Positions 36,131-39,149 of a stretch of 64,000 nucleotides of DNA are shown here, in pieces (within the stretch, counting starts at the first letter, position 1; the number at the start of each line of letters is the position of its first letter). This DNA comes from a phage: sequence record PZ154897.1; one strand, written 5' to 3'. Under the pieces are notes generated by a model. That model saw only the letters and a program-made list of their open reading frames with translations, did not search any database and was not told the DNA's origin. The translations under genes and the position numbers were made by a program.

Positions 36131-36300
36131 ATATTAATTTCCAGAAGTTTTAAAATAATTCGCTTTTGCTTAAATATTTCCATAGTTAAATGATCAGTAT
36201 CTTTTTGACCAATTCCGATGGCAAAACCTTTATTAACAGCGAGTTCAATTAAATTATCGAGTTCACGTAACACTTCATATTGTAACTCAGAACTATTCAT
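36127..36300 (-). CDS. hypothetical small protein (57 aa), not in ORF track
   Basis: manual translation MNSSELQYEVLRELDNLIELAVNKGFAIGIGQKDTDHLTMEIFKQKRIILKLLEINI; ATGA overlaps at both ends suggest translational coupling. Confidence 0.4.
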   Translation of the reverse strand: MNSSELQYEVLRELDNLIELAVNKGFAIGIGQKDTDHLTMEIFKQKRIILKLLEINI

Positions 36301-36524
36301 TTTGGTTTACCTTCTTTAACAAAATCGGGATAAGGATAAAATCCTGAATAAAATCCTTCACCTTTATGATTAATGCATCCTTTATTAGAGCAATAGCACC
36401 AATAATCGAAATCACAAGCCATTTCATCATTGCATAAAGCAAAAACAACTGGCCATTTACACTTTTCACAATGTGCATTTTTAAGAATGCTAGTTTGGCT
36501 CATAACCATGTAACCTTTAAGCAA
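36297..36524 (-). CDS. small Cys-rich protein (probable Zn-binding)
   Basis: 75 aa with CEKCKW...CNDEMACDFDYWCYCSNKGC. Confidence 0.45.
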   Translation of the reverse strand: MLKGYMVMSQTSILKNAHCEKCKWPVVFALCNDEMACDFDYWCYCSNKGCINHKGEGFYSGFYPYPDFVKEGKPK

Positions 36525-36712
36525 TATTCTTCTACATGCTGTTTACGACCTTTCTTATCAATAAAGGTATATTCAACGAATGTTCCAATATAGTCTTTAT
36601 CTACATCATGAGGACTATTAATTGGGCATTTAGTACGGCAAATGCGTTCCCATTGACGAATAATTTCTGCTTTGTTTTTAGGATCAAACGGATGCGGGTA
36701 ATGTACTTTCAT
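36500..36712 (-). CDS. hypothetical small protein
   Basis: 70-aa ORF. Confidence 0.4.
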   Translation of the reverse strand: MKVHYPHPFDPKNKAEIIRQWERICRTKCPINSPHDVDKDYIGTFVEYTFIDKKGRKQHVEEYCLKVTWL

Positions 36713-37163
36713 AATCCACCACTATTAAATCAATATCAGGAGTAAACATGTCGATTAATTTAGAAACCTTATCCCAATCACCGCCAGCAATACCACAACC
36801 TATGCGTGGAATGTAAATTACTGGTTTAAACAAAAGGGTCTCTGCCTGTAGATTTAATTCTATCATGCAGTTTACTAAAGCACCATAATCAAGATTAGGA
36901 CCCGGTTCGTATTGCGTATACAGGTTATAGCATATACCAAATCCCGTAGGACTATGTTTAAAAACAATAGACATATCGCCTAATTTATCACGAGAACCGT
37001 ACTCGGTAGTGGTTTTATCTATTTCTAAAATTTTGGGATAGGCCCTCGCTAATTGACCCGCTACACCTGAACCCATAGTATGAAAGCAGTTGCACCCGTG
37101 CGCAATAATATTACCTTGAAGAAATAGGGCGACAATATCGCCCTTGATATATTTTACAATCAT
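36684..37163 (-). CDS. macrodomain protein (ADP-ribose binding/processing fold)
   Basis: 159 aa; GNIIAHGCNCFHTMGSGVAGQLA and IGCGIAGGDW resemble the two glycine-rich loops of macrodomains. Confidence 0.55.
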   Translation of the reverse strand: MIVKYIKGDIVALFLQGNIIAHGCNCFHTMGSGVAGQLARAYPKILEIDKTTTEYGSRDKLGDMSIVFKHSPTGFGICYNLYTQYEPGPNLDYGALVNCMIELNLQAETLLFKPVIYIPRIGCGIAGGDWDKVSKLIDMFTPDIDLIVVDYESTLPASV

Positions 37164-37501
37164 CTAGTACTCAATCCTCGATTATAAGAATCTACCAAAC
37201 GGTCAACCATTGAATGACAAGCGGCTTTATCTTTCTCCTCCGCAACTGAACATTCTAAGGTATTCCACTTTTTAGCATATCGTTTTAATAAAGTATCGTT
37301 CTTGTATCTGCTTGATTTATCTCTTTCTCCGTCTTTATATGCATATATTAATTTCTGCGCAAATTCAGCTTGGCATGCTTTATTTTTCCCGCAATAATCC
37401 GCGGCAGTACGGTTTACATACTCTCTAATTTCAGTATATGATGTATTTGCTAACGCAGAAAATGAAATTAATCCTATACATAAAACCAAAATTTTAGTCA
37501 T
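37160..37501 (-). CDS. small secreted protein (signal peptide); occupies the vs position
   Basis: 113 aa; MTKILVLCIGLISFSALANTS signal-peptide-like; four Cys. Confidence 0.45.
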   Translation of the reverse strand: MTKILVLCIGLISFSALANTSYTEIREYVNRTAADYCGKNKACQAEFAQKLIYAYKDGERDKSSRYKNDTLLKRYAKKWNTLECSVAEEKDKAACHSMVDRLVDSYNRGLSTR

Positions 37502-38039
37502 TTACTATTTCCAAAAGTTTATTATTTTTAAGGTAGTTAGCCTTTTCTAGGACTTCAGAAGCATATTTAGAACCTGCTTTAACATTCCATCCCGAATTAT
37601 AAGAGGATATAGCCTTTCTTATATCGCCCTTATGTATATTTAACCAATAAGAAAGTTCAATGTACGCCCAGGAAGCTGAATTGGACCGTTTATTCAACAT
37701 TCTTTTTATTTCAGCATCGGTCATATTATAACCAAGTTCCTTAACTCTTGCTCGCATTGTCGGCAAATAATTTTGGAACATTCCATAGGCATGATGCTTT
37801 GGTTTAGATTTTAAATTAACTCCGGCAGAGCTTTCTTGCCATAAAATAGCAGCCATTATATGACCTAATCCACCCTTGTGGATATTTTTATGTGTTTTAT
37901 ATTTTCCATCCTTAGAAAATTGTTCCCCGAATTGATACGCGTAACGCATGTTATCGAGTTGGACATTACTGAAAGTATGCTCGGAGCTATGTGCCATCAT
38001 TGAAATGGCCAATAGACCAGCGAGTAGTGCTTTTCTCAT
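37494..38039 (-). CDS. secreted lytic transglycosylase-like protein (SLT family 1 motifs)
   Basis: 181 aa; signal peptide MRKALLAGLLAISMMAHS; motifs ILWQESS, YGMFQ, SYNSG. Confidence 0.6.
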   Translation of the reverse strand: MRKALLAGLLAISMMAHSSEHTFSNVQLDNMRYAYQFGEQFSKDGKYKTHKNIHKGGLGHIMAAILWQESSAGVNLKSKPKHHAYGMFQNYLPTMRARVKELGYNMTDAEIKRMLNKRSNSASWAYIELSYWLNIHKGDIRKAISSYNSGWNVKAGSKYASEVLEKANYLKNNKLLEIVND

Positions 38040-38533: not shown

Positions 38534-38563
38534 AAATTATACCACAGTCAAGAGGAAAAGTAA
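38534..38563 (-). promoter_or_regulatory. early sigma70-type promoter upstream of regB
   Basis: minus-strand GTTTAC (38558-38563) and TGTGGTATAAT (38534-38544). Confidence 0.5.
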
Positions 38564-38568
38564 ACAAG

Positions 38569-38847: not shown

Positions 38848-39149
38848 TAATATTTTTCCTCTGGTTGGAACACAGCACGACAAGCCCACATACTGGCTTC
38901 TTTGAGTTTCGTTTTAGCAATAGTTAACTGATCAAGACTTTCAGCATAATTCTTTGCGAATTCGCAGTCTTCACAATTATCTAATGCTTCCCAGAATTCA
39001 TCGTATAAAGCATCAAAGATAAGTCCTAAACGAACTTCAGCGTCTTTGATAGCATTCACTTTACTGATTTTATCGTCAGTATGTGGCTTATAACCTTTAA
39101 TATCTTCAATCATATTTGACTTCCTCACCAGTGCATAAATCATATTCAA
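38847..39149 (-). CDS. hypothetical ~100-aa protein at the vs.4 position (candidate Acb2-type sponge by synteny only)
   Basis: second ORF after regB; size near T4 Vs.4; no sequence-level confirmation possible here. Confidence 0.35.

Follow-up and report, generated by a model that had tools for sequence, protein, structure and literature searches.

In the T4-like phage genome examined here (sequence record PZ154897.1, of which a 64,000-nucleotide stretch, the window, was analysed), a gene for a small macrodomain protein overlaps the first of two consecutive genes for predicted signal-peptide proteins, one of which resembles a lytic transglycosylase. This arrangement raises the question of what a macrodomain does for the phage, and whether its neighbours take part in the same function.

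A T4-like locus with three overlapping genes

The window derives from a Tequatrovirus, and the 3-kb region around tk.4, vs and vs.1 is 98.4% identical to that of Escherichia phages FL33 and FL34. In all, 745 phage records match this region, and 446 carry it at 95-99% DNA identity. The window counterparts of T4 rI.-1, rI, rI.1, tk, tk.3, vs, vs.1 and regB are 94-100% identical to the T4 proteins. An earlier reading made from the letters alone (the sequence-only reading) had reported three open reading frames between positions 36684 and 38039, and these are present on the minus strand exactly where it had placed them:

36684-37163, minus strand: tk.4 (adfM) allele, 159 aa, a stand-alone macrodomain (ALC1/TARG1-like class) in which Gln84 occupies the catalytic-Lys position
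37160-37501, minus strand: vs, 113 aa, annotated as valyl-tRNA synthetase modifier, with a predicted Sec-type signal peptide and four conserved Cys
37494-38039, minus strand: vs.1, 181 aa, a predicted signal-peptide protein with an SLT fold (family 1 lytic transglycosylase or goose-lysozyme-like)

The overlaps are 4 nt between tk.4 and vs and 8 nt between vs and vs.1. A promoter and terminator scan of the region gave counts no higher than those in shuffled sequence; the best sigma-70-like promoter match is TTTACT-17-TATAAT with an upstream TG (38536-38564, minus strand), located just upstream of regB. About 1.7 kb upstream of tk.4 lies an ortholog of vs.4 (38850-39113, minus strand) whose product is 96.6% identical to T4 Vs.4. 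This gene is annotated as the anti-CBASS protein Acb2 in a related phage, and its proximity to tk.4 suggests two counter-defence genes in one early gene block.

Tk.4 is a macrodomain of the ALC1/TARG1-like class

The macrodomain had been called from two glycine-rich loops, which correspond to residues 22-39 (HGCNCFHTMGSGVAGQLA) and 121-130 (IGCGIAGGDW) of the 159-residue protein, and this call is borne out by profile searches. Pfam Macro (PF01661) matches with E 1.3e-7 over profile positions 2-117 of 118, its 32 bits exceeding the cutoff of 22, PHROG 335 matches at E 1.2e-71, and the protein conforms to the three-layer alpha/beta/alpha macro fold. When a profile built from an alignment of 69 Tk.4 homologs was searched against solved structures, the matches were as follows:

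BT1257: E 2.5e-19
TARG1: E 3e-17
SCO6735: E 6.6e-16
Poa1p: E 1.7e-13
M. tuberculosis DarG: E 6.6e-12

The closest relatives in both sequence and structure belong to the ALC1/TARG1-like macrodomain class. The protein has no signal peptide and is acidic (pI 5.0). The window protein is predicted to bind or hydrolyse ADP-ribose. The motif and domain matches of tk.4, like those of vs.1 described below, are far beyond chance. Neither domain assignment is new, both going back to 2003-2006: a comparative genomics study of T4 relatives from 2006 listed A1pp/macro for tk.4 and SLT for vs.1, citing PSI-BLAST results obtained before (PMC1524935).

Stand-alone macrodomains of the same type, about 150 aa long and carrying the equivalent of Gln84, are also found in many bacterial phyla at 33-44% identity (contigs L082-L161). 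The carriers include Rhodobacteraceae, Desulfobacterales, Verrucomicrobia, Planctomycetota and Bacteroidota.

The active site is of the glutamine type

Three elements of the predicted active site can be placed on the window, the first and third from the 69-sequence alignment and the second from HMM alignments:

37047-37100, minus strand: His22-x-x-Asn25 active-site element and first Gly-rich loop of tk.4, residues 22-39
36912-36914, minus strand: codon for Gln84 of tk.4, at the position of the catalytic Lys84 of TARG1 and Lys80 of DarG
36774-36803, minus strand: phosphate-binding loop of tk.4, residues 121-130

Across the 69 sequences, H22, G23, N25, C26, G33 and A35 are invariant, as are G122, G124 and W130, and the Gly-rich loops at residues 31-35 and 122-128 are conserved. 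In addition, Q84, N80, Y82 and D49 are invariant in 159 of 159 viral and bacterial homologs, and these four positions fall outside the patterns used to fetch the homolog loci.

Residue equivalences with other macrodomains were taken from HMM-based alignments. Gln84 of Tk.4 aligns with Lys84 of TARG1 and with the Lys of PhiKZ AdfM (FPTKDNW); the correspondence of TARG1 Lys84 to Lys80 of Thermus aquaticus DarG is that given in the literature (PMC9411070). Because Ala126 aligns with TARG1 Asp125 and Gln84 occupies the Lys84 position, the Lys/Asp dyad is absent from Tk.4. Asn25 aligns with N23 of PhiKZ AdfM and, via BT1257, with N27 of SCO6735, and BT1257 has the same three residues (H, N and Q) at the aligned positions of H22, N25 and Q84.

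SCO6735 also has Gln at the catalytic-Lys position, in the numbering of PMC9411070. In that work its Gln85 is essential (Q85A is inactive), and the enzyme outpaces DarG in cleaving the thymidine-linked ADP-ribose (dT-ADPr) that DarT makes on DNA; it also relieves the toxicity of DarT. The mechanism proposed there is water-mediated, with Gln85 and Asn27 responsible for positioning (PMC9411070). Tk.4 shares both marks of this SCO6735/BT1257 Gln-type subclass, namely the Gln at the Lys position and the His-x-x-Asn element. Judged by these residues, the mechanism of the Tk.4 family should resemble that of SCO6735 (Gln) more than that of DarG (Lys).

The resemblance is not complete. SCO6735 (Streptomyces coelicolor) and BT1257 (Bacteroides thetaiotaomicron) are bacterial proteins, whereas Tk.4 is phage-encoded. 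Their mobile loop is 5-6 residues longer and carries DNA-binding lysines, an extension that Tk.4 lacks; compared with the Tk.4 profile, BT1257 carries six inserted residues directly behind the Gln, and the corresponding loop of the window protein is QYEPGPN, with no Lys. BT1257 also has a pI of 8.4, in contrast to the acidic window protein. Finally, SCO6735 and BT1257 carry Val or Ile at position 25, whereas the Tk.4 family has an invariant Gly23. The role of Val25 in SCO6735 was proposed to run through its backbone, so Gly23 in Tk.4 is compatible with the same chemistry.

Tk.4 is distinct from DarG and from PhiKZ AdfM

DarG, the antitoxin of DarTG2 (Thermus aquaticus, M. tuberculosis), uses the catalytic Lys80 where Tk.4 has Gln, and it carries a C-terminal DarT-binding domain that is missing from Tk.4, which is a macrodomain alone. 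Against the NCBIfam DarG equivalog NF048014, the window protein scores 27.7 bits, compared with a cutoff of 250, and covers profile positions 2-142 of 338; it matches only positions 3-144 of 329 of the PADLOC DarG model. A DarT2-like sequence was not detected in the window (best tblastn E 0.93), nor was a darT gene within 3-4 kb of 159 Tk.4 homologs, both searches relying on a single P. aeruginosa DarT2 query of limited sensitivity. An identification of Tk.4 as DarG was thus rejected on the equivalog score, the DarT-binding domain, the catalytic Lys and the neighbouring darT. Most likely, Tk.4 would work like DarG without being a DarG.

The product of PhiKZ gp104 (AdfM) is, like T4 Tk.4, a phage stand-alone macrodomain that counters DarTG2, and its residue N23, equivalent to window N25, is important for its activity. 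However, the PhiKZ protein is DarG-like and of the Lys type, whereas the window protein is of the Gln type. The two align by BLASTP at E 0.005 over only 23 residues, and PhiKZ AdfM scores 31.8 bits against the Tk.4 family HMM, indicating remote similarity. It also differs in being imported into the phage nucleus. On sequence grounds, we assign the two proteins to different macrodomain branches.

A probable role in countering DarTG2

The function of the T4 gene has recently been addressed by genetics. In a transposon-sequencing screen of a T4 library on a DarTG2-expressing host, tk.4 was the single hit, and a clean knockout sensitised T4 to DarTG2 (bioRxiv 10.1101/2025.11.20.689424). The authors of that preprint renamed the gene adfM (anti-DarT factor Macrodomain) and suggested that its product strips ADP-ribose from DNA enzymatically. 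The PhiKZ protein of the same name removes DarT2-made T-ADPr in vitro, and its N23A substitution reduces activity (PMC13309987, Cell Rep 2026). For Tk.4, the evidence for anti-DarTG2 protection is only genetic, comes from a preprint, and pertains only to the T4 allele, which is 58% identical to that of the window. Literature searches returned no enzymology for any Tk.4-type protein, and the literature on CmdTAC and AdfN does not mention tk.4.

The sequence-only reading had offered two functions for the macrodomain. Its main proposal, reversal of a host DarT-type defence, is supported by the sensitised T4 knockout and, given the 2025 preprint, was already published. Its second proposal, a tuning of phage-directed ADP-ribosylation, is very unlikely, as set out below.

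We favour the view that the window macrodomain counters DarT2 by removing thymidine-linked ADP-ribose, to which we give a probability of about 0.7. The host toxin DarT2 ADP-ribosylates thymidines (the second T of TNTC) in single-stranded phage DNA, and this modification blocks replication. Tk.4, as an early, cytoplasmic, stand-alone macrodomain, would act as an orphan antitoxin-like counter-defence protein that most likely hydrolyses the thymidine-ADP-ribose bond, frees ADP-ribose and restores the template. The invariant Gln84, held by His22 and Asn25, would position the distal ribose for water-mediated cleavage, as was proposed for SCO6735. Both the hydrolytic chemistry and the activity of the window allele are inferred. 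Against this view count the 58% identity to the T4 protein and the purely genetic nature of the T4 evidence, which are the main sources of doubt, along with three features of the window protein itself: the lack of a Lys-bearing DNA-binding loop, its acidic character, and a Gly in place of SCO6735 Val25.

Hydrolysis may even be dispensable for protection, since catalytically dead SCO6735 and DarG still inhibit DarT in vitro. Indeed, SCO6735 Q85A, DarG K80A and TARG1 K84A all lower DarT activity, with the SCO6735 mutant having the largest effect (PMC9411070), and an allele replacement of the kind found at tk.4 (see below) would fit co-evolution with a protein partner. A macrodomain whose main effect is to bind and inhibit the DarT2 toxin, rather than to erase the DNA modification, is nonetheless unlikely in our judgement. 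Phage and bacterial homologs that share 33-45% identity all keep H22, N25, Q84 and the Gly loops unchanged, a pattern that points to selection on catalysis, and the model coverage given above places the C-terminal DarT-binding domain of DarG outside what Tk.4 retains.

A further alternative is a housekeeping enzyme, either an ADP-ribose-1''-phosphate phosphatase (the phosphatase of current annotations) or an O-acetyl-ADP-ribose deacetylase, that would clear NAD-derived metabolites during infection. The phosphatase label derives solely from the old A1pp domain name, and the T4 knockout phenotype is specific to DarTG2 hosts, with tk.4 as the sole hit of the screen, which makes such a role very improbable. 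A similarly low likelihood applies to a Tk.4 that tunes or reverses what the phage's own ADP-ribosyltransferases Alt, ModA and ModB do to host proteins, or that strips ADP-ribose from RNA (for example, the uracil-linked form). The Alt and Mod enzymes modify arginine, and no data connect tk.4 with their targets. T-even phages do encode three ADP-ribosyltransferases (PMC10468400), and uracil-ADPr on RNA is a further substrate of TARG1-like macrodomains, SCO6735 among them (PMC13036486). However, the class members discussed in the literature consulted act on Glu/Asp-, thymine- or uracil-linked ADP-ribose, not on the arginine-linked form (PMC9411070, PMC13036486), and no uracil-ADP-ribosylating defence against T-even phages emerged from that literature.

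Adjacency to vs and vs.1 reflects T-even synteny

The three genes are co-oriented, overlap by a few nucleotides and keep their order in T-even-like phages, features that could be taken to indicate one functional module linking ADP-ribose metabolism to the cell envelope. Gene co-occurrence does not favour this idea. Among 79 viral Tk.4 loci, a Vs relative occurs within 4 kb in 15 and a Vs.1 relative in 25, leaving 54 with neither; RegB is present within the same distance in 20. The neighbour-bearing loci are the T-even-like ones plus five that are more distant and have a Vs.1-like gene only. In the 54 loci that lack Vs, Vs.1 and RegB neighbours, the macrodomains are 35-45% identical. The 80 bacterial homologs span many phyla, and each is a stand-alone ORF of about 150 aa for which single-query tblastn detected no DarT2 neighbour within 3 kb.

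Moreover, both neighbours carry predicted signal peptides while the macrodomain has none, and the body of tk.4 has been exchanged by itself, without its neighbours. We therefore rejected the functional module on co-occurrence, consider it extremely unlikely, and attribute the arrangement to T-even synteny. With regard to the counter-defence role favoured above, vs and vs.1 have no part in the Tk.4 mechanism and are simply co-transcribed neighbours.

An exchanged tk.4 allele

At 58% identity over 155 aa (E 1e-69), the window and T4 Tk.4 proteins are far more divergent than the products of the flanking genes, which are 94-100% identical to those of T4. T4 Tk.4 occupies the same slot between vs and tk.3, and H22, N25 and Q84 are identical in the two alleles. 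Its first 40 residues are 80-90% identical to the window allele, whereas residues 61-80, 121-140 and 141-155 show 27-40% identity. The T4 protein has 155 aa and the window protein 159, with four extra C-terminal residues. A sliding window over a three-way DNA alignment of the window, T4 and the viral contig L004 (170,523 bp) resolved the following segments:

36683-37070, minus strand: exchanged cassette (tk.4 body), 38-74% DNA identity to T4 and 80-92% to L004
38041 to ~37120: vs.1, vs and the 5' end of tk.4, 88-100% DNA identity to T4, lower to L004
36682-36533: tk.3, 86-100% DNA identity to T4, lower to L004

The tk.4 allele class of L004 is about 90% identical to the window allele, and we regard this contig as Dhakavirus-like in view of the 93%-identical allele of the BASEL phage dhaeg. 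By comparison, the Vs, Vs.1, RegB and Tk proteins of L004 are 44%, 68%, 59% and 71% identical to those of the window. The proximity of the tk.4 body to L004, combined with the divergence of the L004 neighbours, indicates that the cassette moved between T-even lineages. Of 50,697 phage records, 276 have the window-type allele and 221 the T4-type allele (each at 95% identity or more), and 159 have a further class that is 80-90% identical to T4; some Tk.4 homolog is present in about 2,750. The exchange may stem either from selection imposed by DarT2 variants or from the mosaicism that is usual in this hyperplastic region.

Additional features lie in and around this gene. The window tk.4 continues for four codons after the point where the T4 allele ends, and its overlap with the start of tk.3 is 29 nt (36684-36712, minus strand), compared with 4 nt in T4. 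Within its 5' end is a perfect 8-bp G+C-rich hairpin (AGGGCGATATTGTCGCCCT; 37126-37144, both strands), which sits just upstream of the drop in T4 identity. The stem is kept in T4 and L004, with the sole change in the loop; the hairpin encodes the conserved KGDIVAL, so the conservation of the stem may simply reflect coding. Farther downstream, the tk.1/tk.2 region (~36250-36532) has 28-72% DNA identity to T4 and is closer to the Dhakavirus-like L004. It includes a 75-aa ORF (36297-36524, minus strand), without a T4 counterpart at that location, that matches the Pfam Phage zinc binding domain PF23895 (E 3.3e-29).

Vs and Vs.1 carry predicted export signals

Both neighbours had been described as signal-peptide proteins, a description that agrees with their N-termini and with those of their orthologs. 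Each begins with a basic n-region, followed by a hydrophobic core of 12 residues (Kyte-Doolittle 2.70 for Vs and 2.31 for Vs.1) and small residues at -3/-1 (ALA/N and AHS/S, respectively, with the slash at the putative cleavage site). Our use of the term secreted for these proteins refers to the n, h and c regions, the -3/-1 rule and conservation in orthologs, and is a prediction in both cases.

The putative signal peptide of Vs is MTK-ILVLCIGLISFS-ALA/N. Window Vs is 96.5% identical to T4 Vs, annotated as the valyl-tRNA synthetase modifier, and matches PHROG 1256 at E 6.5e-40. Orthologs at 42-69% identity keep the signal-peptide character but not its sequence, and four Cys in the mature part are invariant among them. 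The predicted mature protein has 95 aa, a mass of 11.0 kDa and a pI of 9.05. Searches with Vs against PDB, NCBIfam and PADLOC gave no match, and a full HMMER scan of 1.84 billion proteins recovered only 8 cluster representatives of the family; with so few relatives, there is no remote homology to explain Vs.

Vs thus looks like an exported small Cys protein. An exported, disulfide-bonded Vs would be hard to reconcile with binding to the cytoplasmic valyl-tRNA synthetase. Deletion of vs impairs T4 plaque formation in minimal medium only (10.1101/2025.11.20.689424), and full-length His-tagged Vs was insoluble (PMC8076793). If Vs is periplasmic, then either the textbook assignment of this gene is wrong or the protein acts before or without export. 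The predicted export signal is also relevant to the newly reported minimal-medium phenotype.

Vs.1 contains the three SLT motifs noted earlier (ILWQESS, residues 65-71; YGMFQ, residues 85-89; SYNSG, residues 146-150 of the 181-aa protein). Its match to Pfam SLT (PF01464) is marginal, at 23.2 bits against a cutoff of 21.3 (E 5.5e-5), and the protein conforms to the lysozyme-like SLT fold. In an alignment of 37 Vs.1 homologs, E69, G86, F88, Q89, Y147, N148 and G150 are invariant and S70 is present in at least 90%. One position is of particular functional relevance:

37833-37835, minus strand: codon for Vs.1 Glu69, the presumed catalytic glutamate (WQES motif), invariant in the 37 homologs

The E-S motif defines the family 1 lytic transglycosylases. 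Members of this family (Slt70, MltE, MltF, MltC, EtgA) share with Vs.1 the SLT fold and the E-S, GxFQ and YNxG motifs, and they are exported by a signal peptide, as is predicted for Vs.1. Mature Vs.1 differs in being just one domain, 163 aa long, that carries about 40 residues of N-terminal extension. Sequence and profile searches against PDB gave nothing significant, the best match being the C-terminal motif of goose-type lysozyme (E 0.51), and the SLT call consequently depends on the Pfam match, the motifs and the predicted fold. Vs.1 is a putative exported SLT-type muramidase or transglycosylase; a transglycosylase, unlike a hydrolase, would form 1,6-anhydro-muramyl products.

Implications

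For the window tk.4, the gene identity, fold, class and active-site residues are established here. The anti-DarT2 role was reported in 2025-2026 and the domain content of tk.4 and vs.1 has been known for two decades, and the novelty of our analysis is incremental. It consists of the Gln-type short-loop active site, the exchange of alleles between T-even lineages and the Vs export signal. These points could be joined into a larger picture in which Tk.4-type AdfM proteins stand apart among dT-ADPr hydrolases as a branch with a Gln-type active site and a short loop, with alleles shuffled as cassettes between T-even genera, and Vs is an exported, disulfide-bonded periplasmic protein. We offer this combination tentatively, and it is doubtful that it will hold as a whole.

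A reading of the sequence alone reached the counter-defence function that experiments with T4 tk.4/AdfM and DarTG2 have just reported. Among T-even phages, tk.4 exists as at least two deeply diverged alleles (58% identity) that move as cassettes, so results for the T4 allele should not be taken to hold for the approximately 276 sequenced phages of the window type. The distinction between the Gln and Lys types matters for the design of catalytic mutants, and the name matters as well because the AdfM of PhiKZ belongs to a different, Lys-type branch. If protection also needs contact with the toxin, tk.4 alleles could differ in their specificity for DarT2 variants, in which case the tk.4 locus would be a small anti-defence specificity cassette.
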